Made by a program: the position numbers and the translations under genes. The notes under the pieces were generated by a model that saw nothing but the letters and a program-made list of their open reading frames with translations, did no database searches and was not told the origin of the DNA. From IMG/VR virus record IMGVR_UViG_3300032320_001919: a DNA stretch of 64,000 nt. One strand, 5' to 3'. The DNA comes from an uncultured virus (IMG/VR IMGVR_UViG_3300032320_001919) (lineage: Duplodnaviria; Heunggongvirae; Uroviricota; Caudoviricetes). Of the stretch, positions 7,886-53,794 are shown piece by piece (the stretch's first letter is position 1; the number at the start of each line of letters is the position of its first letter).

Positions 7886-7946
7886 GCGATAAGGCTATCG
7901 GCAAACTCGCATAAACATAAACGGATAAGCCTAAAGGGAAACTCCG
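7886..7946 (+). promoter_or_regulatory. tandem covarying stem-loop motifs in a 5' leader
   Basis: gcga-TAAG-gc-tatcg-gc-AAAC-tcgc and cgga-TAAG-cc-taaag-gg-AAAC-tccg; the second abuts the ATG at 7947. Confidence 0.55.
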
Positions 7947-9686: not shown

Positions 9687-9687
9687 T

Positions 9688-22909: not shown

Positions 22910-22935
22910 CATAAATACTCCTTTTGGAGTACGTT

Positions 22936-26944: not shown

Positions 26945-26945
26945 T

Positions 26946-28473: not shown

Positions 28474-28482
28474 GAGTTATGA

Positions 28483-34766: not shown

Positions 34767-34854
34767 TGGCGGAAGGTAAGGGATTCGAACCCTTGGAACC
34801 TTTCAGTTCGTCTCGTTAGCAGTGAGGTGCCTTCGACCACTCGGCCAACCTTCC
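34767..34854 (-). tRNA. trnS: tRNA-Ser(GCT)
   Basis: GGAAGGT acceptor, CTGCTAA loop, long V-arm, GCCA. Confidence 0.85.
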
Positions 34855-35282: not shown

Positions 35283-35348
35283 AATTATCCTCTGTTATCT
35301 CTTCAACTATTATAGTATAGCCTAAGCTTGTTTTAAAAGCAAGTCATA

Positions 35349-35431
35349 TGGTGCCTCAGGAGGGAATCGAACCCCCATGGTTTCCCGGTTGATTTTGAGT
35401 CAACTGCGTCTACCGATTTCGCCACTGAGGC
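35349..35431 (-). tRNA. trnL: tRNA-Leu(CAA)
   Basis: GTTGA-CTCAAAA-TCAAC, V-arm, ACCA. Confidence 0.9.
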
Positions 35432-35435
35432 AATA

Positions 35436-35511
35436 TGGTGCTGTAAGCAAGAATCGAACTCGCGACCTGATGATTACTAATCAACTGCTCTACCAACTGA
35501 GCTATTACAGC
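35436..35511 (-). tRNA. trnT: tRNA-Thr(AGT)
   Basis: anticodon loop TTAGTAA, canonical D and T arms, ACCA. Confidence 0.8.
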
Positions 35512-35516
35512 ATTAA

Positions 35517-35593
35517 TGGTGCGCCCGGTAAGACTCGAACTTACAACATCTGGTTTCTAAGACCAGCGCCTCTACCAATTGGACTACGAGCGC
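35517..35593 (-). tRNA. trnL: tRNA-Leu(TAG), short variable loop
   Basis: CTGGT-CTTAGAA-ACCAG, ACCA. Confidence 0.85.
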
Positions 35594-35598
35594 ATTAA

Positions 35599-35673
35599 TG
35601 GTAGCCGATGAGAGATTCGAACTCCCGACAGCCTCGGTGTAAACGAGATACTCTACCACTGAGTTAATCGGCC
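35599..35673 (-). tRNA. trnV: tRNA-Val(TAC)
   Basis: CTCG-TTTACAC-CGAG, ACCA. Confidence 0.9.
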
Positions 35674-35679
35674 ATAAAT

Positions 35680-35753
35680 TGGAGCGGGTAGCGGGAATCG
35701 AACCCGCGCACTCTCCTTGGCAAGGAGAAAGGCTACCATTACATCATACCAGC
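35680..35753 (-). tRNA. trnG: tRNA-Gly(GCC)
   Basis: TCTCC-TTGCCAA-GGAGA, TCCA. Confidence 0.9.
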
Positions 35754-35771
35754 TTACTTTATATTTATAAT

Positions 35772-35847
35772 TGGTGCGTCATGGTAGAATCGAACTACCT
35801 TTTCCGGCTTATGAGACCAGCGGGATGCCCATCACCCCCCAAGACGC
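35772..35847 (-). tRNA. tRNA with CAT anticodon (Met or Ile2), atypical D-arm
   Basis: CTGGT-CTCATAA-GCCGG, TTCGATT, ACCA. Confidence 0.75.
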
Positions 35848-35852
35848 ATTAT

Positions 35853-35928
35853 TGGTGCAACCTCTCTGGATCGAACAGAGTTCTTTCGCTCTTCAGGCGG
35901 ACGTGAGCACCAGCTTCACCAAGGTTGC
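35853..35928 (-). tRNA. trnF: tRNA-Phe(GAA)
   Basis: CGC-CTGAAGA-GCG, TTCGATC, ACCA. Confidence 0.8.
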
Positions 35929-36419
35929 TTTAAAGAAGAAAGAACTATTTTCCCATTTGCTCTTTCTTGTTTTCCTAACTTAATATGTTTCTTTAAAAGA
36001 GAAACATCATAAAATATCTCGTTCATGATAAGAACATCATAATCGATAGTATCGAGGTATTTTTCATCACCAAAAACTATTTCATAGAAAATTTGATTGA
36101 GGTTCATCGTATAAACAGCACCGTCATAACCTCTTTCTCTGTTCTCTATACCTATTACATTAAAATTGTTTTTTGTTAAAAGTAATGGTATAATCCCTGT
36201 GCCAGTACCAAGATCAACTATCTTTTTATTACGATAAAGATCCGGATTAGAAATAATGTCTAAGGCTATCTTAGGGTTTGCATAATGAGGATTAGGAAAC
36301 CGATCGTAACCGTACATGTGTTTCCCACTATCATATCCTGGGATATTAATTCCCTCTATGACCAAATGAGCTCTTTCTGACCAAATCTTTTCGTTATCTG
36401 CGTTTAGATAAGACTTCAT
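35916..36419 (-). CDS. class I SAM-dependent methyltransferase
   Basis: KIVDLGTGTG motif I, VIGIE motif II. Confidence 0.75.
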   Translation of the reverse strand: MKSYLNADNEKIWSERAHLVIEGINIPGYDSGKHMYGYDRFPNPHYANPKIALDIISNPDLYRNKKIVDLGTGTGIIPLLLTKNNFNVIGIENRERGYDGAVYTMNLNQIFYEIVFGDEKYLDTIDYDVLIMNEIFYDVSLLKKHIKLGKQERANGKIVLSSLKQPW

Positions 36420-36434
36420 ATTGCACACCTATAA

Positions 36435-36528
36435 TGGAGCATCCGACAGGATTCGAACCTGCATCAGCCATCGCTGGCTACTTCCAGTTACCTTACTCTT
36501 GGTTCGTAGCCAAGGTGGATACGGATGC
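36435..36528 (-). ncRNA. rewired tRNA-like RNA with ACG (Arg) anticodon arm
   Basis: perfect acceptor stem, T-arm and TCCA end; the anticodon arm follows the acceptor after 7 nt and the D-loop-like segment lies 3' of it. Confidence 0.7.
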
Positions 36529-36533
36529 ATAAT

Positions 36534-36609
36534 TGGAGTAACTGGCCAGATTCGAACTGGCACCTCAAGGATTTGCAGTCCCGCACATTAACCGTTTTGC
36601 TACAGTCAC
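36534..36609 (-). tRNA. trnC: tRNA-Cys(GCA)
   Basis: GGA-CTGCAAA-TCC, U73, CCA. Confidence 0.85.
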
Positions 36610-36614
36610 AATTT

Positions 36615-36688
36615 TGGCGACCCATAGCGGTTACGATCCGCTGATACATCTTAGACAGAGATGCGTGTTACCATTACACTAATGGGCC
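36615..36688 (-). tRNA. trnD: tRNA-Asp(GTC)
   Basis: CATCT-CTGTCTA-AGATG, G73; T-loop ATCGTAA. Confidence 0.8.
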
Positions 36689-36691
36689 AAA

Positions 36692-36768
36692 TGGTTGCGG
36701 TGTGTTGGTGCCGCCCCAACTCCTTCGGCTTATGAGACCGACGACTTATCTAATTTGTCCTACCCGCC
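36692..36768 (-). tRNA. trnM: tRNA-Met(CAT), initiator-like 3' end, atypical T-loop
   Basis: TCGGT-CTCATAA-GCCGA, CCGCAACCA end; T-loop GGCGGCA. Confidence 0.6.
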
Positions 36769-37259
36769 TTTTTATTCTTTAAAGATTCAGAAATTTTCTT
36801 TCTTACTTCTTCACTATGCGTTCTAGTTTTTGCTTTTTCAGAAAGTTTTTTTCGAGTTTCAAAACTTAAAGTTCTTTTTCTGTTAGCTTCACTAAGTTTT
36901 TTTCGAGTTTCTTCGCTATGTTTTGAACCTAAGCGACTTATCTTATTCTTAGTTTCTTCAGTATGACGTTTTCCGAGAAAATGAGGACCACCTTCTCCAC
37001 CGACTCCTGCATTATACGTATCTGATCTAGCAACAAATTCTTCTGTAATTATTTCACGTTCTTTATTATTCATTTCTTGTTCAGAACTAAGAACATACAG
37101 TATTTCTTTTTCGAACTTGTTTTTACCATATTTCTTAATGGCTACCTTGAGTAGTTTACCTGAACCAAAATAGTTATCATCTAGTTTTTCTGTTTGGTGC
37201 TTTCCAATATAGAACTTACCATTGACAGTATTCGTTATCTTATAAATCGTGTAGAACAT
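36750..37259 (-). CDS. GIY-YIG homing endonuclease with NUMOD3 repeats
   Basis: TIYKITN..KFYIGKH..YFGSG; four H(S/T)EETxxK(I/L)S-type repeats. Confidence 0.85.
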   Translation of the reverse strand: MFYTIYKITNTVNGKFYIGKHQTEKLDDNYFGSGKLLKVAIKKYGKNKFEKEILYVLSSEQEMNNKEREIITEEFVARSDTYNAGVGGEGGPHFLGKRHTEETKNKISRLGSKHSEETRKKLSEANRKRTLSFETRKKLSEKAKTRTHSEEVRKKISESLKNKKAGRTN

Positions 37260-37300
37260 GCTTTTCTCCTCATGTTCTATTTAGTCATCTGACAAATTCA

Positions 37301-37334
37301 GAGACTAACGAGCTGACCGCTGCTCCACCCCGCA
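37301..37334 (-). pseudogene. orphan 5' half of an initiator tRNA-Met
   Basis: TGCGGGGTGGAGCAGCGGTCAGCTCGTTAGTCTC matches the fMet 5' half up to the anticodon loop, then breaks. Confidence 0.75.
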
Positions 37335-37361
37335 ACATTATTTTTGTAATATACTATGTGT

Positions 37362-37958
37362 TTAGATATTAATCAAGTCTTTTGTTGTCTTAGTAAAGAA
37401 CCAACAAGTAGAAGGCGTGACACCAACCTTCTCATGAGAACAATGATCCTTGACCGCTTTGACAATTCCAGGATATGGATCGGCGAAGTCATGACCAGCA
37501 AACAATCCACCAACCTTAACCTTTGGATGCCAAGCTAGGAGATCCTTACGGAAGGACTCGTAGTCGTGAGAGGCATCGATAAACACAAAGTCAAGAGACT
37601 CATCTTCATACAGAGCAGCAGACTCGGCGCTGTCACCCTTGATGCCCTTGACCATTCCTGGACGTTCCTGCTCAACAGGCTTCATGTTGTTTGTGAAGAC
37701 CTCAAACAAACGACCAGCCTGATTGTCGCGATCGTACATCTGTCCAGGTTCAATAGGCGAACCAGTGAAGTTGTCAATACAATCGAGCGTGATTTCCTTA
37801 CCGCTATTGATAATCTCAACAGCAAGGAACGAAGAACTTTGACCCTTCCAAGGACCGATTTCTACAAACTTGCCCTTATCTGGTGCTTGCTGAACAGCAT
37901 GTGCATACATGTCTGCGAAGTTAAACCAGCCTTCAACCTTTTGAAAATAATGTTCCAT
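37362..37958 (-). CDS. class I SAM-dependent methyltransferase (Methyltransf_24-like)
   Basis: VEIG.WKG.S, GDS, DFVFIDASH.YE...D...W...K.GG...GHD. Confidence 0.85.
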   Translation of the reverse strand: MEHYFQKVEGWFNFADMYAHAVQQAPDKGKFVEIGPWKGQSSSFLAVEIINSGKEITLDCIDNFTGSPIEPGQMYDRDNQAGRLFEVFTNNMKPVEQERPGMVKGIKGDSAESAALYEDESLDFVFIDASHDYESFRKDLLAWHPKVKVGGLFAGHDFADPYPGIVKAVKDHCSHEKVGVTPSTCWFFTKTTKDLINI

Positions 37959-37969
37959 AGTTCCTCCAA

Positions 37970-38641
37970 TTAATCAGTATCAATAACAAGATCGCCAGAA
38001 AGCGAGACTCTATAACCATCAGAAGTATAGAATGGGTTTACAGAGTGACCGAGCTTGGCTGGGAACAAACAAATAATTCCTTCATACTCATTATCAACTG
38101 GGAACGGGAAGCTACGGGTTTGTCCGAGAATGTCAGTGTAATAGGCTACAAAATTACCAGCTATAGGCAGCGTAGACTCTGGATACAGAGCTCGCTCGTC
38201 GGCAGCGTGATAAGGAACCTTCGCCCAAAGAGCAAACGAATAGACACCACCATGGATATGGTGCGGATGGAATTCATTCTTTGCCTGGAAATTTACCCAG
38301 ATATCCTTGAACTTAAACTTAGTAACCTTTGAGGCAACTTCTGTTACGTTACGAATATGATGCGGCTGGGACATCTGATCATGAGCCTGTGCTAGACCAA
38401 CAATATACTCAAGCATTACAGGAATCAGTTCTTCACTAAGGTCAAACTCCTTGGCGATGTTCGCTGTCAGCTTATAGTTTGCCTTCTTACCTTCCTTAAA
38501 GTCTGTGTCCATAAGCTTTTGGACAACCTTGTTAACAGGGTCCATAATTTCCTTTGGAACTCTTTGAAATAAGACACCTGAGTTTGGGAAAGTGAAGAAT
38601 AAGCCTTGGCCTTCTTCGAGCCTAGTAACTTGATCTGCCAT
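37970..38641 (-). CDS. 2OG-Fe(II) oxygenase-like protein
   Basis: WVNFQ...F.P.H.H, FPA.L.H.V.PF, R.S.SG; GAGG SD before MADQ. Confidence 0.8.
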   Translation of the reverse strand: MADQVTRLEEGQGLFFTFPNSGVLFQRVPKEIMDPVNKVVQKLMDTDFKEGKKANYKLTANIAKEFDLSEELIPVMLEYIVGLAQAHDQMSQPHHIRNVTEVASKVTKFKFKDIWVNFQAKNEFHPHHIHGGVYSFALWAKVPYHAADERALYPESTLPIAGNFVAYYTDILGQTRSFPFPVDNEYEGIICLFPAKLGHSVNPFYTSDGYRVSLSGDLVIDTD

Positions 38642-38705
38642 AATAATACCTCTCATTTAAACATAAAGTAAACCACTTGTCTACACAAGTATTTAGTAGT
38701 GGAAT

Positions 38706-38793
38706 TGGCGGAAGGAGTAGGATTCGAACCCACGGAACCGTTAAGTCCTTCGGTTTTCAAGACCGATGCGATAGACCACTCTGCCATCCTTCC
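38706..38793 (-). tRNA. trnS: tRNA-Ser(TGA)
   Basis: TCGGT-CTTGAAA-ACCGA, long V-arm, GCCA. Confidence 0.9.
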
Positions 38794-38958
38794 AAATTTC
38801 GTTGCTGGTTACTGCCATCCAGCTTCTCCCTTTTCGCGGAGTAGGTTATTAGGTAAAAACGTTGTCGCTAGGAGACATCACTCGCTCCACAGAGTATACC
38901 CAACTTTCTGCCGACAAAAACACAAGTTGGAGACGCACAGGAACCTATCCCTGTGAAT

Positions 38959-39035
38959 TGGCTGCTCGAGTAGGGATCGAACCTACGACATCCTGATTAA
39001 CAGTCAGGCGCAACTACCAGCTGTGCTACCGAGCA
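38959..39035 (-). tRNA. trnN: tRNA-Asn(GTT)
   Basis: CCTGA-CTGTTAA-TCAGG, GCCA. Confidence 0.9.
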
Positions 39036-39129
39036 ATAATTTCGATGCGATTTCTTATAGTGGTTACGCCCTCCACTCTTCGTAGTATAGCTAGTATACC
39101 TGGATCTATTTATAAAGTCAAGCATTAAT

Positions 39130-39205
39130 TGGCTCGGGAGGCTGGGATCGAACCAACAACCTTGTGATTCAGAGTCACCTGCGCTACCAATTGCGCCACT
39201 CCCGA
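39130..39205 (-). tRNA. trnQ: tRNA-Gln(CTG)
   Basis: GTGA-CTCTGAA-TCAC, U1-A72, GCCA. Confidence 0.85.
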
Positions 39206-39211
39206 ATAAAT

Positions 39212-39285
39212 TGGTCCCTGATGGTAGGATCGAACTACCTTATCCTGCTCCACAAACAGGCGTTCTACCATTGAACTAAACAGGG
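39212..39285 (-). tRNA. trnH: tRNA-His(GTG), A73 and no G-1
   Basis: CCTGT-TTGTGGA-GCAGG; ends GGG-A-CCA and the base before position 1 is T. Confidence 0.85.
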
Positions 39286-39889
39286 ATTTTTCTTCCTTTA
39301 TACCAACCATCTGGTATAAGATTAGTATCTTTTTTTATTTTTTTATTTTCTTTTCCGTTAGTAATCCAACAAGTTCCATATTGGGAATTGTATATTCCGC
39401 TCGCTTTGTTTTTTCTAGCATCTTTTATCTTTTGTTTAGTTTCTTCGGTATGTTTTTTTCCTAAAAAGGTTTTTCTATCGTGTGTAATTTTGCCTTCTTT
39501 ATGAGATCTTTTCATAGTTTCCGAAGAATGCGATGTGGCCTTTTTAATAGTTTCTGACGATCTTGTTTTTGTAAATTTTTAATACGAACTTCAGTTAAAT
39601 TTAATTTAGAATTAATATAGCCGAATCCACCCTTACCACCATCACAAAGATTATAGTTTAGTTCCGGATCAGGCACTACTAAAATTTTTTCTAAAGTATT
39701 CATATGTTTTTCAGATTCGCAAACGAACAGTATTTCTTTATGGAAGTTTTCTATTCCATATTTTTTTATGGCAAATTTTAAACGTTTGCCTGAACCAAGA
39801 TAATTATCTTTTATGTTTTTGGTTTGATGTTTACCAATATAAAATTTGCCATTAACAACATTTGTAGTTTTATAGATTGTATAGAACAT
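39276..39889 (-). pseudogene. GIY-YIG homing endonuclease split into two frames (39512-39889 and 39276-39515)
   Basis: GIY-YIG domain in the first ORF; NUMOD3 and WITNG...GWYKGR tail in the -1 frame. Confidence 0.7.
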
Positions 39890-39950
39890 TTAGGAAGCCT
39901 CAGAACACAATAGGGTTTACAAATTATTTAGTGTTCTGAGGTCTTCAATG

Positions 39951-40022
39951 TAGCGCATAAGGGAATTGAACCCTTCTCCCCGGATTGAAAGCCCAGTATT
40001 CTGACCACTAAACTAATGCGCC
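39951..40022 (-). tRNA. trnE: tRNA-Glu(TTC), no encoded CCA
   Basis: CTGGG-CTTTCAA-TCCGG, TTCAATT; followed by CAT instead of CCA. Confidence 0.8.
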
Positions 40023-40075
40023 ATTAAAATTGTCCTCATTGTTGCGCTTCAGTGAGAGGCGTTAGAGGAACTAAT

Positions 40076-40158
40076 TGGAGGACTGGGTGGGACTCGAACC
40101 CACGATGTTGTATAGCAGATTAAAAGTCTGCGCCGTTCGCCACTACGGTAACCAGTCC
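40076..40158 (-). tRNA. trnK: tRNA-Lys(TTT) with extended variable region, U73
   Basis: GCAGA-CTTTTAA-TCTGC, 11-nt V region, TCCA. Confidence 0.8.
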
Positions 40159-40276
40159 GTATACTTTGTAGTGCGGCTACTTCTATAGACTATAAGCTAT
40201 TACAACAACAATTCAACAGGATCCGCTTGGTTTTCTATCATGCAAGAAAGTTAATTGCTGCAAGGATCCTTAAACT

Positions 40277-40350
40277 TGGCTGGAAGACTAGGAATCGAAC
40301 CTAGATTCGTGGTTTCAAAGACCACTGTCCTACCGTTAGACGATCTTCCA
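40277..40350 (-). tRNA. trnQ: tRNA-Gln(TTG)
   Basis: GTGGT-CTTTGAA-ACCAC, U1-A72, GCCA. Confidence 0.9.
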
Positions 40351-40354
40351 ATAT

Positions 40355-40429
40355 TGGTTGGCACAGAAGGTAACGATCCTTCCACCCCTGTCTTATCAGG
40401 ACAGTGCTCTACCTCTGAGCTATGCGCCA
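40355..40429 (-). tRNA. trnI: tRNA-Ile(GAT)
   Basis: CTGTC-CTGATAA-GACAG; T-loop ATCGTTA; ACCA. Confidence 0.85.
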
Positions 40430-40554
40430 ATGATTCGTTACACCTTACAGGTTTAGCCCTTTCGCGAACAGAGTCAGCAATCCTGTATTCGTAAGCTTTC
40501 CCTCATGTTGGGCTTACTAGGTCTCCCCTGTCTTATCTAGAACGCTGGATAATT

Positions 40555-40637
40555 TGGTGGGCAGGTGTGGTTACGCTCCACTCCCGTATGGATGGGTTTT
40601 ACAGACCCACTGCCGAAACTATCGACTTTACCTACCC
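40555..40637 (-). tRNA. trnY: tRNA-Tyr(GTA)
   Basis: TGGGT-CTGTAAA-ACCCA, V-arm, T-loop AGCGTAA, ACCA. Confidence 0.75.
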
Positions 40638-40794
40638 TTAAATTGCTGCACCTCACGCTTCGGTGCGAATGTTGTCTGGTATTGCGACCACTTTCTCGAA
40701 GGTAACCAGATCAAACTTGATGTCAGCCTCACAGTTATTCGGCTGGCTGTCTGACATTCATGACGCGCATCACTGCTACGTAGTCAGATCAAAT

Positions 40795-40868
40795 TGGTGC
40801 CGCATGAGAGAATCGAACTCCCATCAGAGGATTACAAAGCCCCTGTACTGCCATTGTACTAATGCGGC
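40795..40868 (-). tRNA. trnT: tRNA-Thr(TGT)
   Basis: loop TTTGTAA, GCCGCAT acceptor, ACCA. Confidence 0.8.
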
Positions 40869-40873
40869 ATTAA

Positions 40874-40948
40874 TGGTGGACCTGTGGAGAATCGAACTCC
40901 ATTCATCCCGGTGCAAGCGGGATATAATACCCATTATACTACAAGCCC
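40874..40948 (-). tRNA. trnA: tRNA-Ala(TGC)
   Basis: TCCCG-CTTGCAC-CGGGA, G3:U70, ACCA. Confidence 0.9.
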
Positions 40949-40955
40949 AATAATT

Positions 40956-41030
40956 TGGCGAAGGTCCTAGGAATCGAACCTAGTTCTCAAGGTTTTGGAG
41001 ACCTGCGGATTGCCATCTTCCTCGACCAAC
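40956..41030 (-). tRNA. trnW: tRNA-Trp(CCA)
   Basis: AGGT-CTCCAAA-ACCT, G73; two U:U mismatches in the acceptor. Confidence 0.75.
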
Positions 41031-41039
41031 GCAATTAAA

Positions 41040-41116
41040 TGGTCGGAGATGTAGGAATCGAACCTACGACCCTCTGCTCCCAAAGCAGATGCGCTACCAG
41101 GCTGCGCTAATCTCCG
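41040..41116 (-). tRNA. trnP: tRNA-Pro(TGG)
   Basis: TCTGC-TTTGGGA-GCAGA, CGG start, ACCA. Confidence 0.92.
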
Positions 41117-41124
41117 TTATAAAT

Positions 41125-41209
41125 TGGAGGACCAGGTGGGACTCGAACCCACGGTGCGTTTCCGCGACAGATTAAGAGTCTGCTACCATAGCCACTAGGT
41201 GACTGGTCC
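41125..41209 (-). tRNA. trnK: tRNA-Lys(CTT) with long variable arm, U73
   Basis: GCAGA-CTCTTAA-TCTGT, V-arm GCG-GAAA-CGC, TCCA. Confidence 0.8.
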
Positions 41210-46155: not shown

Positions 46156-47064
46156 TCACAAATACTTCGCTTCAAGCTTTCCCTGTCTTGCATTCTCAAC
46201 TGCTTCATCTTGCTTTGGTGCCTTCTTTCTTAAAGCTCCTGGATCAGCAGTTGCGCTTGCGCCAATAGCAGCAAGATCAGCAAGAGAGCCACCAAAGATG
46301 TAAGTACCAACGTGCTGCATCTTCATCCATGGACAGAACCAAGTTTTAAGACCAGCTTCCTGCGCCTTCTGACAGAACCAATAATCTTCAGACAAATAAC
46401 GCTTAGACTTAGGATCAATTTCTGCCTGGAAAAACTGCATAATTTCGCGGCTTCCATCGAAAGCCTCAGTGCGAACATGGTCAGGACGATACATCATTTC
46501 CTTATATGTATCAGCAAACTTCTGCATTGCAGCCTTTGTGACCATCATGAAGCCTGTGCCGATTTCAAGAACTTCACAAGGTTCAGAAATTTGAATAGAT
46601 CCTTGACCGTTCTTTGGGTTGAACACATAATCACCAACGAACTTTTCAAGAACTCCAGGATCTTCGTCGGCAACACCCTTATCAACAGCCATCTTAATCT
46701 TTTCCCAGCTGATGCACTTCTTGGGATAAGGACCACCAACAATGTCATACTTCTCTGGTTCGTTTGCTTGTAGAGCCATGAGAGCAATGACATCATGAGG
46801 ATTAAATCCGATGTCAGAGTCGATAAACATGAGATGCTGTGAAGGCGATCTCATAAACTCGTCGCAACAATAGTTACGAGCACGAGTAATCAACGACTCG
46901 TTAAACAAGAAATACATCTGAAGGGGAATACCGTTCTGAGAACAGATAGCAGCTAGATCTGCCACCGATCTAGCAAACATACCAGCACACTGGCCACCAT
47001 ACATCGGTGTTGCTAGAAACAGTCCGTTCTTTCTTAGAGTTTCTATTTCAATCTTAATTTCCAT
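46156..47064 (-). CDS. GT-A fold glycosyltransferase-like protein
   Basis: ATPMYGG, ESLITRARN, FIDSD (DxD), GTGFM, YLSEDYWFC, H.G. Confidence 0.75.
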   Translation of the reverse strand: MEIKIEIETLRKNGLFLATPMYGGQCAGMFARSVADLAAICSQNGIPLQMYFLFNESLITRARNYCCDEFMRSPSQHLMFIDSDIGFNPHDVIALMALQANEPEKYDIVGGPYPKKCISWEKIKMAVDKGVADEDPGVLEKFVGDYVFNPKNGQGSIQISEPCEVLEIGTGFMMVTKAAMQKFADTYKEMMYRPDHVRTEAFDGSREIMQFFQAEIDPKSKRYLSEDYWFCQKAQEAGLKTWFCPWMKMQHVGTYIFGGSLADLAAIGASATADPGALRKKAPKQDEAVENARQGKLEAKYL

Positions 47065-47480
47065 TATTTACCATCCTTATAATGATCTACGTATAGACAC
47101 ATGAATATATAGTGCAAAGCCTTCATCAAGTCTTTCTTATTGCTTCCGTTCTTCTTACCATAACGCCAAAGATACTTAATAGCAGTGTTGCGAAATGTTG
47201 GAGTTGAATCTCCAAGAGCAATCCAGGCATCAAAACATTCAATAGACTTATCTTCTGTCATATAGTGTTCAGAATACGTTGCGTCTAAATGTGCTTTGAG
47301 GTCAGCTAGAATTTTATCCTCAGCGTATTTATACGACAAAGAGTTCAATTCACTGTTTTTTCCATCAAAAATATATTCTTTGACTGGAGCAGCCTTACCT
47401 ATAATAAACCCACTCTCGTCAAAGATATATTCATTATCACTATCACAATCACAATTGCAATTACCAGTACAAATCATCAC
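47064..47480 (-). CDS. DUF3310-like nucleotide-modification-associated protein
   Basis: HY....IEC.D...F....IKYLWRYGKK....DL.KA.HY. Confidence 0.75.
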   Translation of the reverse strand: MMICTGNCNCDCDSDNEYIFDESGFIIGKAAPVKEYIFDGKNSELNSLSYKYAEDKILADLKAHLDATYSEHYMTEDKSIECFDAWIALGDSTPTFRNTAIKYLWRYGKKNGSNKKDLMKALHYIFMCLYVDHYKDGK

Positions 47481-48013
47481 TTACCTACCATTTCATAAAC
47501 TACATCTAAAATATGATTTTGTTCTTCAAGAGTATTATTAACATACTTGAAGGTGTTGAACATCAATGTCATATTAGACATGATGTTTGAGATCTTTGTT
47601 TCTCTCCCTTGTAACCACGTTTCATTCTGATTGCTTCCACGTTCCTTATATCTTTCTTCGCGAATTTGTTTTGTTGTTGAAAGATAAATGATACTCAAAT
47701 CATATTTGTCTAAACAATGCTCAAGGAAAGAAGCAGTGAACAAGCGATCGCCTTCGAACAATACAACTGAATTTGACGGGATTGAAGAAAGAAACTTAAT
47801 AGCTTCTGGCTGAACAGCCATGCTCATACGATCTGTCCCGGAAAATACTTCGCCTTCTTCGTACTTTCCTAGGATATAGATATTATCTTTTTGTAAGTAG
47901 GGAACAAGCTTGAAAGCATCATAGTTTGGTGTAACTTGGTAATGCTTAATAATTTCTTTCATCAAGGTAGTTTTGCCTGATCCAGGTTCGCCACCAATAG
48001 CAATTACTTTCAT
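47477..48013 (-). CDS. P-loop kinase, putative 5-hydroxymethyluracil-DNA kinase
   Basis: GGEPGSGKTT, GTD.MS, EGDRL, R...RG; adjacent to the amino acid:DNA transferase. Confidence 0.7.
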   Translation of the reverse strand: MKVIAIGGEPGSGKTTLMKEIIKHYQVTPNYDAFKLVPYLQKDNIYILGKYEEGEVFSGTDRMSMAVQPEAIKFLSSIPSNSVVLFEGDRLFTASFLEHCLDKYDLSIIYLSTTKQIREERYKERGSNQNETWLQGRETKISNIMSNMTLMFNTFKYVNNTLEEQNHILDVVYEMVGK

Positions 48014-48019
48014 AATACC

Positions 48020-49012
48020 TCACATAAATTCTTCAAGACCAATTTTATTTTGTACGAACAAACCTGTCGCGTCTAATATATTATTTTGGCTATACAGAGC
48101 CATTTTACTATCATCAATCTTATTAGTCAACAGTTTATTATTTAGTGTTTCTTTACGAGCGTCCCACATAGGTTGCCAGTCAATACCAAACCAATCATCG
48201 TTTTCGCACTGTTTAATTTCTTCAGCTTGACGATCAAGGTAATAACCAAGGTAACGCCCACGACTGACACGAAATAGCTTCTTGAATGAACAAAGACAAG
48301 TTTCCATATCAAAGTAATCAGTGTTTGGAAACTCTTCTCTAACTTCCTGTAAAATATAATATGCTTGACCATCAAGATAGTTAATCTCTTGATCGGTAAG
48401 TTTCTTATCATACCAATCGTCAAGCCCAAGAGCCATAACAAGACCGTTACGATGAGAACGACTTCCATCATAATCGTCAAGCATCAAATGTGGAGGTTCA
48501 ATGGGAACACCACAACACTGTTTGAGTGTTTGCATATAAAACCAAGTTGAGTAACGACCAAACTTATGGAACTTTGTTTTTACTTCTGACCAAATTCCGT
48601 CGAAGTTTTCTCTTGCTGATCTTTCAAGGAAGGGATCGAAGGTTTCTTTTTGAGTGCGATCACCAACCCATTGCTTGTAACTTTCGAACTGGGCTGGAAA
48701 ATGACCTTTGTTCCACTTGGTGTCAGTTTGATAACGGAGCCGTTTGTAATTGTTATTATTCCATTCGCGGAGGCGTTCGATTCCGACGAGTTCCATGTCG
48801 GGGAACTCATTCCAAATCACCCAAGTTGTTGGGAGATAATAGGTTGTGCCATAAATCCAAGAGATCCATAGTTTTTGCTCCGTATTATGTTCGAAACGAT
48901 CGAACAAATAGTTCGTCATGAAGATAGCAGGGTCACAATCCTTAATAGATAATGACCACTTATACCATTTAATAAAGTCTTGCTTACGTTGTAATTGTAT
49001 TGTTGTCATCAA
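48020..49012 (-). CDS. amino acid:DNA transferase (aGPT-pyrophosphorylase-like)
   Basis: D.DP, HhH-like KFGRYSTWFY, METCLCSFKK, RY.GYY.DR. Confidence 0.7.
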   Translation of the reverse strand: MMTTIQLQRKQDFIKWYKWSLSIKDCDPAIFMTNYLFDRFEHNTEQKLWISWIYGTTYYLPTTWVIWNEFPDMELVGIERLREWNNNNYKRLRYQTDTKWNKGHFPAQFESYKQWVGDRTQKETFDPFLERSARENFDGIWSEVKTKFHKFGRYSTWFYMQTLKQCCGVPIEPPHLMLDDYDGSRSHRNGLVMALGLDDWYDKKLTDQEINYLDGQAYYILQEVREEFPNTDYFDMETCLCSFKKLFRVSRGRYLGYYLDRQAEEIKQCENDDWFGIDWQPMWDARKETLNNKLLTNKIDDSKMALYSQNNILDATGLFVQNKIGLEEFM

Positions 49013-49613
49013 AAAAGCATTTCATAAATTCATTATATCTAGAAGGATGCTCAAAATCAAACTCTTTATGTTTCTTTACTTTCTTCATAATCCACTTTAT
49101 CTTAGCATTACGCAATTCTTGCGGATATGAATTAAGTATTTCTAAAGAACTCATATTTGTAGTTTGTTTAAAACATTCAACGCCTTTATCATTGATTGGC
49201 AAATCACAAAACATCGAATGACTGATGGTTGTTCCCCAATAAGTCATTCCAAGTTTATCATAAAAACCAAGAGCAGATTTATTACAATCTAAACGAATGC
49301 TAGTTGCGCCAGCTTCTACAGCCTCTAGTATGTTACGATGTAACATTTCTCGTGCAGAACCTTTACCCCTACCAGAAGCAGGAGTAAAGATATTTGATAT
49401 AAAAAGAACTTTTGACTTTGCTTGGCCTGAAATCTTCATAAAACAAACAGAAAAAATATTTCCGTTTAGTTCTAATACTCTCGGAGGCCAATCTTCCCAA
49501 GCTTTCATAAAGTCCCACATTCCTATAGCAACTTTAGAGAACTTGAAATCTTTTCCTATAAGAGTATTATGATACTTTAAATAATCGTTTTTGTCAAGCA
49601 TTTTGTAGATCAT
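48984..49613 (-). CDS. GNAT-family acetyltransferase
   Basis: IFT...RGKG.A (motif A), ALGFYDKLG (motif B). Confidence 0.75.
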   Translation of the reverse strand: MIYKMLDKNDYLKYHNTLIGKDFKFSKVAIGMWDFMKAWEDWPPRVLELNGNIFSVCFMKISGQAKSKVLFISNIFTPASGRGKGSAREMLHRNILEAVEAGATSIRLDCNKSALGFYDKLGMTYWGTTISHSMFCDLPINDKGVECFKQTTNMSSLEILNSYPQELRNAKIKWIMKKVKKHKEFDFEHPSRYNEFMKCFFDDNNTITT

Positions 49614-50533
49614 ATTGCTTCTAAAAATCTGCGCTGTTTACCAAGAACATTCAGACCGAGCTTTTCAGCCGTTTCATTGTCTAGGTTACGATCAGTTCTT
49701 TCATACTTGGTCTTTTCCCAACCCATGTACAATTCGTGATCATATGTAAATGGCGGGAACTTGTAATCATAAGAAAAAAGGATTTCTTGCACGTCAGGTC
49801 CGTTGTTAAGGGCAGCATCCATAAAAGCAGTAGCGAAACGGAAGCTGTCTTCAATTTCGCGACGATCAATAGAGCTACGGAAACAACGAAACTCTACAGT
49901 CTTTGAGTTCTTCAAAGCATAGGTATGGATACCATAGCGGAAAGGACGAGATTGAATTTTAGCATCCTTACCACAACAATGAACACGAAGCCAATCTTCA
50001 AAGTCAACAGGAACAGTTGCAAGATTTTCAAGCAACCAATTAGGGGCAATACGACCACCATCATGCTTCAAATAAGTCTTTGCAGTCTTTGTCTGTGTCA
50101 TATTAGGATAGACTCTAAACTGATAAACACGATCCATAGTGATGTGCTGATTTTCCTTGATATAACGCATCAAACGCTTTAGAGCGTCAATATCTTCAAT
50201 CAAACCTGGAACGTGAATATGAAGATGACCGTGATTAACACAACCAGCAGTAGGAGAAGTTCCATGCGCATCAAATAGCTCTTTAACCTTCATGATGTTA
50301 TCAACTTGATGCTGCCAAGTCTTTGTCGGCTTCATATTAATTTCGCCACCGACTGGCGGATTAATTCCCTTCGGGTCTGAACCAAGACCACGATAAGGTT
50401 CTCTCTCGTTGATAATATCTGTTTCGCAATATTCCCAAGAACCAAGTTCTTCAGGAATTTGCATCTTGCGATCTATATCGCCCCACTCGATTTCGAAACC
50501 ATAGGTAAATGTATTTGGGTGATAATACTTCAT
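49610..50533 (-). CDS. putative amidoligase (COOH-NH2 ligase, glutamine-synthetase-like)
   Basis: TYGFEIE, GGEIN, GHLHIHV, TVEFR. Confidence 0.75.
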   Translation of the reverse strand: MKYYHPNTFTYGFEIEWGDIDRKMQIPEELGSWEYCETDIINEREPYRGLGSDPKGINPPVGGEINMKPTKTWQHQVDNIMKVKELFDAHGTSPTAGCVNHGHLHIHVPGLIEDIDALKRLMRYIKENQHITMDRVYQFRVYPNMTQTKTAKTYLKHDGGRIAPNWLLENLATVPVDFEDWLRVHCCGKDAKIQSRPFRYGIHTYALKNSKTVEFRCFRSSIDRREIEDSFRFATAFMDAALNNGPDVQEILFSYDYKFPPFTYDHELYMGWEKTKYERTDRNLDNETAEKLGLNVLGKQRRFLEAI

Positions 50534-51231
50534 TGTAAATCCTCAATATTGAATGTTTCTTTAAGCCACTTATCATCAGCCACTTCAAAATGACTGAGCT
50601 TAAAGTTATTTACATTATAAATTTCGAACATTCTAGTTTTTTCTGAACTAGGGATACCGCTGCGCTTTAAAATGTTTTTTGTAGATGCAAAGATCGTTAC
50701 ACGATCATCAGAATAATAGTATAGCGGTCTTTCGTGATTACGAAAAGCTGTTAATCTTTTATCGGCAAACAGCGCACAGACCGCCATACTAGCTGGGTGA
50801 AACACAGCTAGTGGATTTTCGTCTTTTTCCATTGCTCGCAGAACAAGCTCGGAGTCATTTGCGGTTTCTGTTTCGTAACCAAATAGTTGGCGCCATGTGC
50901 TAGAAGGTTCTTGGGATATGACTCCGTTATGCACAACGCCCAACCCATCAGTTGCAAAAGGCTGATTGTAACGTAGGTCAGAAGTGCTATAGCGAATGTG
51001 ACCAATACAATAGAGATTACCATCTTCGTTTCTCCAAGTTTCTAAGTTTTGTTTTTGTATAAACTCATCAGCCGGAATTGGTTCTTTAATTGTGTGAACT
51101 TTACCATTCTTTACATAAGAAACACCAGTAGCATGCTTGCCACGAATCATTGACTGTTGAAAAAGACTACGGATAATTCCGTAGTCTCTCTCGTTAAAAT
51201 CAGCAATTGTTATGCCAAGGACTCCACACAT
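50530..51231 (-). CDS. class II (Ntn) glutamine amidotransferase
   Basis: MCG N-terminus at ATG 51231, RG..ATG, GH.RYST, QP, HNG, DSE. Confidence 0.85.
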   Translation of the reverse strand: MCGVLGITIADFNERDYGIIRSLFQQSMIRGKHATGVSYVKNGKVHTIKEPIPADEFIQKQNLETWRNEDGNLYCIGHIRYSTSDLRYNQPFATDGLGVVHNGVISQEPSSTWRQLFGYETETANDSELVLRAMEKDENPLAVFHPASMAVCALFADKRLTAFRNHERPLYYYSDDRVTIFASTKNILKRSGIPSSEKTRMFEIYNVNNFKLSHFEVADDKWLKETFNIEDLQ

Positions 51232-52535
51232 TAAAAGAATGCATCCAAGCTCGCTGCTGCTTCCTTTGCGTATGGATCTGTGATGTTGTGCTTCTTCATA
51301 TAACCAAACCACTCTTGATCATCCCACATTCCGGGAGAAACACCATTCCATAATGGTCTTTGTAACTTGTGATCCTTATTAAGGCGGCGCTCCTCAACAA
51401 ACTGTTTACGAAGCATCTCGTAATCCCAAGACTTCAATTCAACCATCTTTTCACGGAAATAACAAACAAGTGTCAACCGATCATTATCGTCACCAATAAG
51501 AGCGTCATTACCATGAATACCACCATGGTTGTTAACGAGCAACATATCTCCAGGTAGAAGATTGATACCTATACGATATTCAGGGAGAATAAACTCAGCA
51601 CCTTTCCAACCCTTACCTTCAGGACCAGTGATGCCACAGATGTTAGAAAACCCTTCATGCAAATCACCAGCGTCTCGGTGACAAGCTGTACGCCAGTTAT
51701 GATTAACTGTCAGTGTTGTGAAAACTGTCTCATCAACAAGGAATCTCGTGTCAAGCTTGTCAGCTTCGCGGCGCTGATTGCCCCAGCGAATAGGTAAAAG
51801 TTCTCTAAACTGGTCATTTAACTTACGAAGATAAGGGAAAGCAAGCTTAAACTTTTCTGGATTCTTTTCATTATAAGAACAAACACGACCATGAGGAATA
51901 CGGGGATATCTGTCAAAATATCCAGCAATACCAGACATGACAGATTGAGCATAATTAGTATCAGAAATATAATTATTGATTACGTAATTAGCTTCTTTGA
52001 TTTGCTCTTCACGAGAAAGATTATGCGTGCCAGTAAGCCACTTTTCAAACCAACCGTGATACTCAGGATACTTTTTTGTAACTGCAGAACGTAACCAAAC
52101 CTGACCACGAGTTTCTTCTTTTGAACCCTTCTTATGACTTTCACGAATTGATTCGATAGTTGTTCCATCATCAAATGTATTAGTAGGTCTTGCCAAGAAA
52201 GAAAGAATCTCAAGGTGTTCAGCAGTCACCCAATCGCGGTTGCCACGACCTTCCTGACCTAACTGATCGCCACGTGGACCAGCCGCCATGCCACGATTTT
52301 GCGACTCAGTCGCAGCATCTCTAAGACCAGCATACGCCATGTCCATTTCTTCTTTAGTGAACACGTTCTTTCTGAACTTAAAAATGATATTCTCTTCAGA
52401 GAGTTTACCATCAATAGATTCAGCATAAAGATCACAATCTTCAGTTATGATCCTATCCGTATAATCTTTACAAGTAATAAAAGAACCAAGAGTTTCTTCT
52501 GAACTAATCTTCTTTCTTACAAGAACCTCAACCAT
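51231..52535 (-). CDS. TET/JBP-family 5-methylpyrimidine dioxygenase
   Basis: FTTLTVN.N.RTACHRDAGD (HxD), HGN, RLTLVCYFRE. Confidence 0.8.
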   Translation of the reverse strand: MVEVLVRKKISSEETLGSFITCKDYTDRIITEDCDLYAESIDGKLSEENIIFKFRKNVFTKEEMDMAYAGLRDAATESQNRGMAAGPRGDQLGQEGRGNRDWVTAEHLEILSFLARPTNTFDDGTTIESIRESHKKGSKEETRGQVWLRSAVTKKYPEYHGWFEKWLTGTHNLSREEQIKEANYVINNYISDTNYAQSVMSGIAGYFDRYPRIPHGRVCSYNEKNPEKFKLAFPYLRKLNDQFRELLPIRWGNQRREADKLDTRFLVDETVFTTLTVNHNWRTACHRDAGDLHEGFSNICGITGPEGKGWKGAEFILPEYRIGINLLPGDMLLVNNHGGIHGNDALIGDDNDRLTLVCYFREKMVELKSWDYEMLRKQFVEERRLNKDHKLQRPLWNGVSPGMWDDQEWFGYMKKHNITDPYAKEAAASLDAFF

Positions 52536-52613
52536 TTACTTCTCCATGTTTGTATATGTACGACACTTCGTATATATACGAATCATAATTCAAAATTGAA
52601 TTAATGTCAAGCA

Positions 52614-52997
52614 TTAGCTATACTTTTTAAGAATACCTTCTATGTCAGCAGGTTGCCAACCTTCGGGCTTCTTGATCTTTCCATCTTCACGACGGATAAC
52701 CTTACCATCAACAAGCTTGTTCATATTCGCTGAATGAATCGCATTGAACACTTCATCAAGAGGAATACCATAAGAAACCGCTGTACCGCAAGCGATGTAG
52801 ATAATGTCAGCAAGTTCAACAGCCAGATTAACGATATCGTTGTTTGCCTCAGCCTGATTATATTCTTTGTGTTCTTCGCTCATAAGTTTGATGCGAAGAG
52901 CACGCTCAAATTCACTATCAGGAAGCTCTGGTTTCTCACCAACACGCTGCCCGAAAGCAGTGTGGAAATCACGAACCATTTCAAACATAGTCTTCAT
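52614..52997 (-). CDS. MazG-like/PRA-PH nucleotide pyrophosphohydrolase
   Basis: V..FH.AF, EE..E, ELADI.Y, H.ANM.K, REDGKI.KP. Confidence 0.85.
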   Translation of the reverse strand: MKTMFEMVRDFHTAFGQRVGEKPELPDSEFERALRIKLMSEEHKEYNQAEANNDIVNLAVELADIIYIACGTAVSYGIPLDEVFNAIHSANMNKLVDGKVIRREDGKIKKPEGWQPADIEGILKKYS

Positions 52998-52998: not shown

Positions 52999-53262
52999 TT
53001 ATTCCTTTACTCCTAAAATTTTACGAATCTCTTTCTTTGCGTTAAACTCACCAGAGTGATAAACACACTCTAGCAATCCAACAATACCATAATATAAATG
53101 CTTATCTTTTATAGTAACATCAAGTGCACCACCTGAAGACCAACAAGAAAGATTACAGCTATCCCAGTCATCATTCACACCACACGCTGTATTTTTCTTA
53201 AAGAAAGAAGCCATGTATCCTGACTGGTGAAGGGTATGAGGGTTGTTTTGATCGTCAATCAT
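52999..53262 (-). CDS. hypothetical protein
   Basis: ORF likely starting at MIDDQ (GGAG SD). Confidence 0.5.
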   Translation of the reverse strand: MIDDQNNPHTLHQSGYMASFFKKNTACGVNDDWDSCNLSCWSSGGALDVTIKDKHLYYGIVGLLECVYHSGEFNAKKEIRKILGVKE

Positions 53263-53794
53263 TAATCCACTCCGGAGGTTGTCTGTTGGTCCACTTGTGC
53301 ATTCTAGCCTTGCCAATCTTATAATAATTCCGATAATTAGTCAAGGGGTCATTTGAAATTTTATATTCGTCAGCCATGGCCGAAGGCATTAGAGTCATAT
53401 CATATTCTTTAAGATTATGGGGCGGAGACTGAAGCATATAGCTAAGATCGCCTTCTACTTTATGGTTCTTATTATAACGATGAGTATACTCGTTCAATAA
53501 CGCAAACATATGATCCGCGAGCCAGTTATAGTTTTCAACAGACTTGCGACACCAAACAGCAGAGGGATGATTGATGTGAGTTGCTGAATACAAAACTGGC
53601 TCGCGAGCATCTGCGAGAGTCCAACGCTTTACATTACGGCCAGTCGCAGATTTACCAAGATTTTCAACACCATCGAGTAAACGATGCGCAGTACAAAGAA
53701 GTTGCGCAGACTCAAGGATCATTTTGACAACATGCTTGTCAACCATCCACTGAGCAGCTTGTACTGGATCTTTATCAATGTAGAAAATGTTCAT
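53255..53794 (-). CDS. pyrimidine-dimer DNA glycosylase-like protein
   Basis: MNIF.....A....DKHVVKMILE.AQ.L, H.NHPS..W, YR.YY...K. Confidence 0.7.
   Translation of the reverse strand: MNIFYIDKDPVQAAQWMVDKHVVKMILESAQLLCTAHRLLDGVENLGKSATGRNVKRWTLADAREPVLYSATHINHPSAVWCRKSVENYNWLADHMFALLNEYTHRYNKNHKVEGDLSYMLQSPPHNLKEYDMTLMPSAMADEYKISNDPLTNYRNYYKIGKARMHKWTNRQPPEWIND

Follow-up and report, generated by a model that had tools for sequence, protein, structure and literature searches.

The 64,000-nucleotide DNA stretch of the uncultured virus IMGVR_UViG_3300032320_001919 (Caudoviricetes), which in its entirety is hereinafter called the window, encodes on its minus strand a compact run of six genes (47477-52535). 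Their products are a TET/JBP dioxygenase, a glutamine amidotransferase (GATase), an amidoligase, a GNAT-family acyltransferase, an amino acid:DNA transferase (AADT) and a P-loop kinase. We propose that this operon acts post-replicatively to hypermodify thymine in the DNA of a T4-like phage, with the amidoligase, GATase and GNAT forming a tailoring cassette that would act on the DNA itself. As the explanation of the locus as a whole, we give this a probability of about 0.6. That the six genes constitute a single thymine-hypermodification pathway operating on DNA is highly probable, and the chance that the tailoring takes the form of an amidation and an N-acetylation is a little short of even. 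The window is a new T4-like representative, without a ParB gene in its 64 kb, of a type of gene cluster that has been sighted in print and is uncharacterized.

The proposed pathway would begin with the hydroxylation of thymine in phage DNA to 5-hydroxymethyluracil (5-hmU) by the TET/JBP enzyme. The P-loop kinase would then phosphorylate the hydroxymethyl group, a role assigned by homology with M6 gp54, and the clade-2 AADT, by homology nearest to ViI gp247, would employ a Cys/Glu pair to swap the phosphate for an amino acid. In the tailoring stage the amidoligase, which is predicted to have the glutamine synthetase/glutamate-cysteine ligase (GS/GCL) fold, would use ATP to activate a carboxylate on the adduct, the GATase would deliver ammonia from glutamine to generate a carboxamide and the GNAT would acetylate the free amine, leaving a bulky, uncharged thymine adduct. 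The final base is probably undescribed. In its most specific form, the proposal is of an undescribed uncharged adduct, namely an amidated and N-acetylated amino acid on thymine, with the precursor supplied in a T4-like setting by a ParB-independent thymine dioxygenase bearing a long insert; this we put forward tentatively, with the odds somewhat against it.

Organization of the operon

The six genes, and a MazG-like gene upstream of them, are all present where the initial annotation had placed them, as judged from their open reading frames (ORFs) and Pfam matches and, in the case of the amidoligase, from its fold. Profile searches returned matches above the family cut-off for Tet_JBP, ADDT, the kinase and the GNAT, along with a match to GATase_6, and a sub-threshold one to Amidoligase_2. 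The tight coupling described earlier is also borne out and reaches further than had been noted: by ORF coordinates, most junctions from the TET gene down to a gene for a 302-residue protein are overlaps of 1-4 nucleotides (nt) or a 6-nt gap, with an overlap of up to 29 nt between the GNAT and AADT genes, and the coupling continues past the kinase into the genes for a DUF3310 protein (47064-47480) and the 302-residue protein (46156-47064). The 78-nt gap between the MazG-like and TET genes contains a sigma-70-like promoter match, TTGACA-17-TATGAT (52582-52610, minus strand; 11 of 12 positions), which is followed by a GGAG ribosome-binding site ahead of the ATG of the TET, and a strong terminator-like hairpin comes after gp45 at 45435-45418; all three signals are consensus matches only.

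The catalytic residues that could be checked, namely those of the TET, the GATase and the AADT, are all conserved. Going by their sequences, the genes of the cluster are intact and conserved as a unit, and the arrangement is not a chance one: the gene order is kept in related viral contigs spanning amino-acid identities from 100% down to ~50%.

Comparative genomics of the tailoring cassette

A scan of IMG/VR with the amidoligase recovered 36 viral loci at 49-100% identity, onto which we mapped the window proteins and divergent members of their families by tblastn. The counts given here cover those loci that extend far enough, as six end inside the amidoligase. The GNAT gene comes directly after that of the amidoligase in all 30 loci, the GATase is part of the module in 31 of 33, and the cassette is accompanied by an AADT in 27 of 27 and by a gene of the 5-hydroxymethyldeoxyuridine (5-hmdU) kinase family in 26 of 26. 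The kinase is of the Ploopntkinase3 type in 24 of these 26; L028 and L030 have other 5-hmdU kinase domains, with HMUDK_hel in both and HMUD2 additionally in L030. TET is found in 25 of 29 loci.

The order TET-GATase-amidoligase-GNAT-AADT-kinase-DUF3310-302-residue protein-gp45-gp44 recurs in T4-like viral contigs down to ~50% identity (L016 and L025), and more distant relatives display permutations of it: amidoligase-GNAT-GATase-AADT in L028-L030 and GATase-AADT-amidoligase-GNAT-kinase in L032 and L033. In L031 and L034 the order is ParB_N-TET-GATase-amidoligase-GNAT-AADT-kinase. The four loci without TET are L028-L030, which represent one cluster type with, in our reading, a ThyA-like dUMP hydroxymethylase in the position of the TET, and L033. 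In L030, the member of that cluster type whose upstream ORFs were scanned for the ThyA-like hydroxymethylase, the cassette is preceded by genes for a family-B DNA polymerase, a ThyA-like enzyme (E=5e-21), an HD hydrolase, a dNMP kinase, GGACT and HMUD2. A weak ParB_N match and a radical-SAM gene were seen in L033, and no TET or hydroxymethylase came into view there. Phage Simon harbors a 26%-identical amidoligase among genes for an AADT, a 5-hmU DNA kinase (HMUDK), Nmad5, a ThyA-like enzyme, an HD protein and a DUF3310 protein. No C5-methyltransferase was found among 58 flank ORFs of the related loci. The survey shows that the amidoligase, GNAT and GATase form a cassette that can be combined with either a TET-based or a hydroxymethylase-based source of 5-hmU. 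As the cassette is tied to 5-hmU, kinase and AADT chemistry with either source, the TET would be expected to make 5-hmU from thymine and the cassette to act after the AADT; this is the principal argument for both roles.

Several of the related loci show further features. In six of the 36 (L013, at 3405-4853, L015, L016, L020, L022 and L023) a 483-residue protein is encoded between the GNAT and AADT genes, where the window has no such gene. Its middle region was considered as ParB-like and this was rejected, with no BLAST match to the ParB-like protein of L033; given a weak N-terminal GIY-YIG match (E=0.002-0.008), the remainder having no Pfam assignment, we read it as a probable homing endonuclease. 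The GATase-less module of L021 has a 375-residue protein at 2289-3416, likewise between GNAT and AADT, which was considered as a pyridoxal phosphate (PLP) enzyme and set aside, as its similarity to M6 gp52 is faint (E=0.016) and it has no Pfam match. The hydroxymethylase-based cassettes of L030 (4199-7986) and L028 carry a GGACT gene (E=2.7e-24) beside the 5-hmdU kinase, which may hint at gamma-glutamyl chemistry. Finally, Vibrio phage 2.275.O (L042, MG592671.1) encodes at 7896-12156 an amidoligase homolog (24.7% identity; Amidoligase_2, 21.9 bits) and an Ntn/GATase-like protein among 7-deazaguanine genes (QueF-like, a queuosine biosynthesis protein and GTP cyclohydrolase I), a hint that amidoligase/Ntn pairs might be reused in guanine hypermodification.

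The TET/JBP dioxygenase

The TET gene (51231-52535, minus strand) encodes a 434-residue Fe(II)/2-oxoglutarate (2OG)-dependent 5-methylpyrimidine dioxygenase of the TET/JBP family (Pfam Tet_JBP, E=1.2e-14, 54.3 bits versus a cut-off of 34.9; phrog_24024, E=1e-133), in which the H286-x-D288 motif, H341 and R353 are invariant across 12 aligned sequences. The AlphaFold2 (AF2) model of the protein (predicted local distance difference test score, pLDDT, of 76.9) has as its best structural matches TET2 bound to DNA (Z 18.7 over 253 residues), CcTet and NgTET1 (17.1) and CMD1 (16.5), with the AlkB-type enzymes well below the TET family at Z of 12.8 or less. Family, fold and genomic context together point to a thymine dioxygenase that makes 5-hmU in DNA. 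Phage TET-family enzymes from comparable neighborhoods have been reported to oxidize thymine in vivo as well as in vitro, with phage thymine dioxygenases proceeding iteratively to the carboxy form, and TETs without a neighboring C5-methyltransferase have been assigned to the thymine dioxygenases (O'Toole et al., 2026, PMC13229309).

The rest of the window is in line with this assignment. The initial annotation had noted that it encodes ThyX and neither a hydroxymethylase nor a C5-methyltransferase; Thy1 is matched with E=7.9e-40 at 19522-20181 (plus strand), and among 78 scanned ORFs (67 of at least 90 residues and the 11 ORFs of the cluster region) no match was found to the Pfam families of ThyA-like proteins, C5-methyltransferases or ParB in the 64 kb. 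ThyX serves here as context only: by sequence it is the enzyme through which the phage makes ordinary dTMP.

A search of the window by tblastn with the ParB-like protein of L033 gave E-values of at least 1.7, and no ParB_N domain occurs among the scanned ORFs. In L031 and L034, on the other hand, proteins with ParB_N domains (E ~1e-10) are encoded directly upstream of short TETs, after which the full cassette follows. By tblastn the short TET of L031 covers residues 17-92 and 190-397 of the window TET, with a stretch of ~100 residues (~93-189) unmatched. Swapping of a variable insert can abolish the ParB dependence of thymine dioxygenases (O'Toole et al., 2026, PMC13229309), and it is our speculation that the insert at ~93-189 replaces such dependence. 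The N-terminus was also considered as a fused ParB substitute, and this was rejected: the structural alignment of the model covers residues 1-378 and, because the structural matches treat this span as one TET core, the N-terminus is not a separate domain; a ParB-like fold is not among the structural matches listed for the model.

The closest deposited homologs of the TET are those of phages DLP6, C48C1 and Cr30 (41-46% identity), in whose TET neighborhoods the cassette was not found; in Stenotrophomonas phage DLP6 (L001), with its TET at 6989-8335, none of the kinase, AADT and cassette genes lies within 7 kb. The GenBank label 'SNF2 DNA repair protein' borne by the TET homologs of DLP6, Cr30 and S-CBWM1 looks like a misannotation. 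NCBIfam has no specific family for the TET, and the same is true of the amidoligase, GNAT and AADT.

The kinase and the amino acid:DNA transferase

The last of the six genes (47477-48013, minus strand; 178 residues) codes for a P-loop kinase of the 5-hmdU DNA kinase type (PF18751, Ploopntkinase3, E=9e-13, 48.6 versus 27 bits). The protein is 29% identical over 99 residues to M6 gp54, a proven kinase of this kind (pairwise E=8e-6), and its match to ViI gp243 is at the level of the P-loop only (E=0.028). The preceding gene (48020-49012, minus strand; 330 residues) encodes a clade-2 aGPT-Pplase/AADT protein (PF18724, ADDT, E=8.8e-23, 81.7 versus 26.2 bits), in which E237 and C241 do not vary among 11 sequences that include ViI gp247 and M6 gp51. 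They align with the Glu and the nearby Cys that have been reported as essential in these two enzymes (Lee et al., 2021, PMC8989533).

Among the proven AADTs, that of phage ViI is nearest (30.1% identity by tblastn, E=2e-26), with 28% identity to ViI gp247 in the alignment versus 15% to M6 gp51. The AADT has 378 matches in the phage collection, and the ten organisms most frequent among them include no Pseudomonas record. ViI gp247 attaches serine via its hydroxyl, such that a free amine and a carboxylate remain (Lee et al., 2021, PMC8989533). An O-linked serine, by leaving both of these groups free, would suit the GNAT as well as the pair of amidoligase and GATase.

The glutamine amidotransferase, amidoligase and acetyltransferase

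The second gene of the run encodes a stand-alone class II GATase (50530-51231, minus strand; GATase_6, E=1.4e-9; GATase_7, E=1.6e-7) of the N-terminal nucleophile (Ntn), PurF-type superfamily. Its longest ORF (50530-51312) opens with a GTG; since the PHROG and NCBIfam profiles begin at residue 28 of this ORF and a Met-Cys ATG-TGT lies at 51231, overlapping the stop of the TET as TAATG, the ATG at 51231 is most likely the start and the product a 233-residue Ntn domain. The purF and asnB models align to it from their own first position. All 16 sequences compared share M1-C2, R80, N102-G103 and D126, which we take to be the Cys nucleophile, Arg, Asn-Gly and Asp of the PurF glutaminase site. The predicted function of the protein is that of an ammonia donor.

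The next gene (49610-50533, minus strand; 307 residues) was assigned by fold search to the amidoligases, i.e., ATP-dependent carboxylate-amine ligases of the GS/GCL-like fold. Of its 15 homologs, 11 yield weak matches to Amidoligase_2 (E up to 1; best 4.9e-4), and a search of its profile against PDB sequences gave no match. An AF2 model built from a 15-sequence alignment has a pLDDT of 82.2 and a predicted template modeling score (pTM) of 0.84. In a wide search of 48,161 chains with VIA-align, which does not depend on Foldseek and gave the clearer result, the top 18 matches (Z 7.3-10.6) are all carboxylate-amine ligases, with the next match at 5.8. These comprise the YbdK-type 1tt4, plant and bacterial glutamate-cysteine ligases, type I and III glutamine synthetases, gamma-glutamylmethylamide synthetase, PafA and Dop; the alignment with 1tt4_A has Z 10.6 and a root-mean-square deviation of 4.5 over 224 residues. 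In the ESM Atlas, 30 of 30 matches are amidoligase clusters. On the strength of the predicted model, the amidoligase identity is thus confirmed by fold and not by Pfam.

The third member of the cassette (48984-49613, minus strand; 209 residues) is a GNAT-family acyltransferase (Acetyltransf_1, 25.3 versus 20.7 bits). Its translation contains an R-G-K-G-S-A loop, which we take to be a version of the acetyl-CoA-binding R/Q-x-x-G-x-G/A loop of GNATs, and the divergent GNATs of L031, L032 and L028 match Acetyltransf_10 with 33-49 bits. It is predicted to be an N-acetyltransferase acting on an amine of the adduct. The acetyltransferase of phage PaMx11 has a DNA-borne amine as its substrate (Lee et al., 2021, PMC8989533).

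Weighing the proposed pathway

The initial annotation had proposed the succession of TET, kinase, AADT and tailoring. The conserved residues, the association of the genes and the occurrence of the cassette with both 5-hmU sources uphold this succession, and the chemistry of the GATase, amidoligase and GNAT is purely inferred. Several observations weigh against the pathway as we propose it. Some clade C1 TETs without ParB were inactive on thymine or 5-methylcytosine (5mC) in an earlier screen (PMC13229309), and the window TET is one that has no ParB partner in the 64 kb. The 64 kb are part of a genome, and a C5-methyltransferase, ParB or hydroxymethylase may lie elsewhere in it. The AADT is only ~30% similar to the serine transferase, which is too low for a substrate to be assigned; that the appended amino acid is serine is quite doubtful. 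If it were serine, 5-hmU would bear an N-acetyl-serinamide in ether linkage, and the mass of the nucleoside would be ~386 Da. The match of the amidoligase to Amidoligase_2 (PF12224) attains 16.1 bits where the cut-off is 22 (E=0.011), and its best PDB matches by Foldseek, which are glutamine synthetases, reach only E ~1e-3 with a template modeling score of ~0.35. Ligases of the GS/GCL fold usually activate the gamma-carboxylate of glutamate, by which token a peptide-type ligation would fit as well as an amidation. L021 and L036 have no GATase in view and their amidoligase comes directly after the TET, which suggests either that ammonia from glutamine is not obligatory or that the ligase may use another amine. 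A GGACT gene stands next to the cassette in L030, stand-alone GATase homologs occur in 137 phage records, and phages tf and CW02 have GATase-amidoligase pairs with no AADT or kinase nearby. The pathway is proposed here from genes, predicted structures and gene context.

Some of these observations raise the possibility that the route to the adduct is as proposed and that the amidoligase then forms a peptide-type or gamma-glutamyl bond, coupling the adduct to glutamate, a different amino acid or a polyamine, or linking its carboxylate to an amine other than ammonia, with the GATase and GNAT acting on the extended side chain. The best structural relatives of the amidoligase, which include GCL, gamma-glutamylmethylamide synthetase, 1-naphthylamine GS and the Pup ligase PafA, all ligate a carboxylate, for the most part one derived from glutamate, to varied amines. 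This would also accommodate the modules lacking a GATase, the GGACT gene of L030, the AdoMet decarboxylase encoded in the window and the combination, in phage tf, of a GATase and an amidoligase with an ATP-grasp ligase and a gamma-glutamyl cyclotransferase. However, the GATase is present in nearly every module and its glutaminase site is complete, the sole known role of which is to furnish ammonia to an activated acceptor, and neither GGACT nor ATP-grasp genes were found among the scanned window ORFs. We therefore regard such a ligation as unlikely.

The association with AADT and kinase genes bears on whether the GATase and amidoligase, possibly with the GNAT, act on DNA at all, or instead constitute a 'COOH-NH2 ligase' module of the phiEco32/LUZ24 type directed at a metabolite, a protein or the cell wall. 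The paired genes of tf and CW02, in regions of 10.6 kb and 6.4 kb that were viewed and contained no AADT or kinase, and the wide spread of the stand-alone GATase favor the latter, as does a paper on OM43 phages that treats such genes as auxiliary metabolic genes (PMC10580990). Yet in the present lineage of amidoligases every locus that extends far enough has an AADT and a 5-hmdU-kinase-family gene, with which the cassette genes are interleaved in permuted orders, on unrelated backbones and with both 5-hmU sources. An action away from DNA hence appears improbable.

A further possibility is that the TET oxidizes thymine to 5-carboxyuracil, the own carboxylate of which is amidated by the amidoligase and GATase to 5-carbamoyluracil, on a branch apart from the kinase and AADT. 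Here the orthologous amidoligases (53-54% identity) of the TET-less L028-L030, where no 5-carboxyuracil is expected, are telling, as is the fact that the GNAT always comes after the amidoligase and that the AADT always accompanies them; these outweigh the adjacency of TET, GATase and amidoligase in that order, the pairing of an amidoligase homolog with an Ntn-type protein in 2.275.O, within a 7-deazaguanine pathway that has a carboxylate-to-amide step, and the iterative oxidation of thymine to the carboxy form by phage thymine dioxygenases (PMC13229309). We consider this very improbable. A cytosine route, in which a C5-methyltransferase encoded outside the window would provide 5mC, the TET would convert it to 5-hydroxymethylcytosine and the kinase and transferase would hypermodify it, is scarcely credible: phosphorylation of TET-made 5-hydroxymethylcytosine by a P-loop kinase has been raised for contigs with a C5-methyltransferase, TET and kinase (Burke et al., 2021, PMC8256090) and the 64 kb are part of a genome, but neither the 78 scanned ORFs of the window nor the 58 from the flanks of the relatives include a C5-methyltransferase, a dUMP hydroxymethylase feeds the same cassette in relatives, TETs without an adjacent C5-methyltransferase have been assigned to the thymine dioxygenases (PMC13229309) and all characterized AADTs and 5-HMUDKs are reported to act on 5-hmU (PMC8989533).

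Relationship to known systems

The thymine-hypermodification pathway that we favor belongs to a type of cluster with precedents in the literature, and its description as a candidate new pathway in the initial annotation was overstated. Clusters from metaviromes in which 5-HMUDK and AADT occur together with TET_JBP, amidoligase and glutaminotransferase have been presented, some of the contigs having a TET_JBP protein in place of the hydroxymethylase (Lee et al., 2021, PMC8989533). In a later tally of 23,070 TET-bearing contigs, a P-loop kinase was found in 11.0%, an AADT in 14.6%, a GATase in 10.8% and a GNAT in 7.1%; the word 'amidoligase' is not mentioned in the main text and 12 supplementary files of that study that were searched (O'Toole et al., 2026, PMC13229309), which fits with its Pfam score being below the cut-off. 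Radical-SAM isomerases, PLP decarboxylases, FAD lyases and acetyltransferases make up the list of known tailoring enzymes in a 2026 paper on diaminopropanyl-thymine, a list without amidoligases or GATases. The other part of the claim, that no characterized pathway has this enzyme set, agrees with the literature: our searches found no such pathway, nor a product or an amidoligase or GATase activity on DNA.

The pathway of phage ViI to 5-(2-aminoethoxy)methyluridine shares with the window the post-replicative conversion of 5-hmdU via 5-phosphomethyldeoxyuridine (5-PmdU) to an amino-acid adduct by a P-loop kinase and a clade-2 AADT (PMC8989533). It differs in deriving 5-hmU from a dUMP hydroxymethylase and in tailoring by a PLP decarboxylase (PMC8989533), whereas the window has a TET as the source, retains ThyX and combines amidoligase, GATase and GNAT with no PLP enzyme. 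Pseudomonas phage PaMx11, which makes 5-acetylaminomethyl-dU, has in common the kinase, AADT and acetyltransferase but, as its pathway is described, employs a glycine transferase of the M6 type and an FAD lyase and no amidoligase, GATase or TET (Lee et al., 2021). The neighborhoods of the ParB-dependent clade C1 thymine dioxygenases also link TET to a GATase, a P-loop kinase and an AADT (PMC13229309); the window is set apart from them by the absence of ParB from its 64 kb, a 434-residue TET with an extra stretch of ~100 residues and a T4-like backbone. Trypanosome base J, made by JBP1/2 and a glucosyltransferase, shares the TET/JBP oxidation of thymine in DNA to 5-hmU (PMC13229309), but its second step is a glucosylation, in place of which we propose a phosphorylation followed by amino-acid transfer.

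The modules of the LUZ24-like phages, tf and CW02 resemble the window in placing a type-2 GATase, stand-alone or fused, beside an Amidoligase_2 protein, and differ in having ATP-grasp ligases and a gamma-glutamyl cyclotransferase and no TET, kinase or AADT. Such COOH-NH2 ligase systems of the phiEco32 type were reportedly described by Iyer and colleagues in 2009.

Neighboring genes and the wider genome context

The gene after the kinase (47064-47480, minus strand) overlaps it by 4 nt and encodes a 138-residue DUF3310 protein (PF11753, 27.2 versus 24 bits). A DUF3310 gene follows the kinase in 15 T4-like loci, and phage Simon has one within its hmU cluster and phage C48C1 one near its TET; it is possible that the protein is an accessory of the pathway. 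The succeeding 302-residue protein (46156-47064, minus strand; phrog_1574), coupled to the run, shows weak hints of a GT-A-like domain. Its homologs are present in 63 phage records, with a TET homolog in only 9 of these, and on this count we ruled it out as an hmU glycosyltransferase specific to the module; it is probably not part of the pathway. At the other end, the MazG-like/PRA-PH pyrophosphohydrolase (52614-52997, minus strand; Pfam PRA-PH, E=6e-19) had been placed at the head of the run. In phages DLP6 and Cr30 its counterpart sits beside RegA and away from the TET, on account of which it was rejected as a member of the pathway, and it is probably a neighbor only. Farther upstream, a 179-residue protein (53255-53794, minus strand) has a borderline match to Pyr_excise, a T4 endonuclease V-like DNA glycosylase (23.7 versus 23 bits), and a strong one to phrog_624; its gene lies upstream of those for MazG and TET in most close relatives and is missing in L016, L025 and DLP6.

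The window has a T4-like myophage backbone, with genes for gp23, a gp41-type helicase, gp44/62, gp45, gp46/47, UvsW, UvsY, a gp55-like sigma factor and RegA, and additionally codes for PhoH, transaldolase, peptide deformylase and AdoMet decarboxylase. No near-identical match to it was found among deposited phages searched at the DNA level; a 12.9-kb fragment (G001) is near-identical to it. Between 23386 and 41209 there are 26 tRNA genes, mostly in a minus-strand block at 34767-41209, interspersed with genes for GIY-YIG/SegE-like endonucleases. The homing-endonuclease-like genes in all number one HNH_3 and four SegE/GIY-YIG genes (20181-20825, 22924-23349, 24394-24915, 36750-37259 and 39512-39889), and an HNH gene stands between those for ThyX and the ribonucleotide reductase. 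Within the tRNA region, a second 2OG-Fe(II) oxygenase (2OG-FeII_Oxy_5, E=2e-9) is encoded directly upstream of a Methyltransf_24 protein (E=6e-17) at 37362-38656 on the minus strand. A plus-strand run at 26591-31186 is of a sugar-nucleotide type, comprising AdoMet decarboxylase, a cytidylyltransferase-like protein, a SIS isomerase, a HAD phosphatase, transaldolase, a GT1 glycosyltransferase and a GHMP kinase; it resembles a heptose-nucleotide pathway with a transferase, the target of which could be a cell-surface or a DNA glycan.

Implications

Thymidine hypermodifications shield phage DNA from restriction enzymes and CRISPR nucleases, and the enzymes that install them are tools for writing chemistry onto DNA. 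The association of the genes considered here is already in print and common in metaviromes; the window offers the cassette as a compact, intact and promoter-led operon, and it is a good experimental target. If the proposed pathway is true, the ATP- and glutamine-dependent amidation on DNA would represent a new class of reaction and its product probably a new base.

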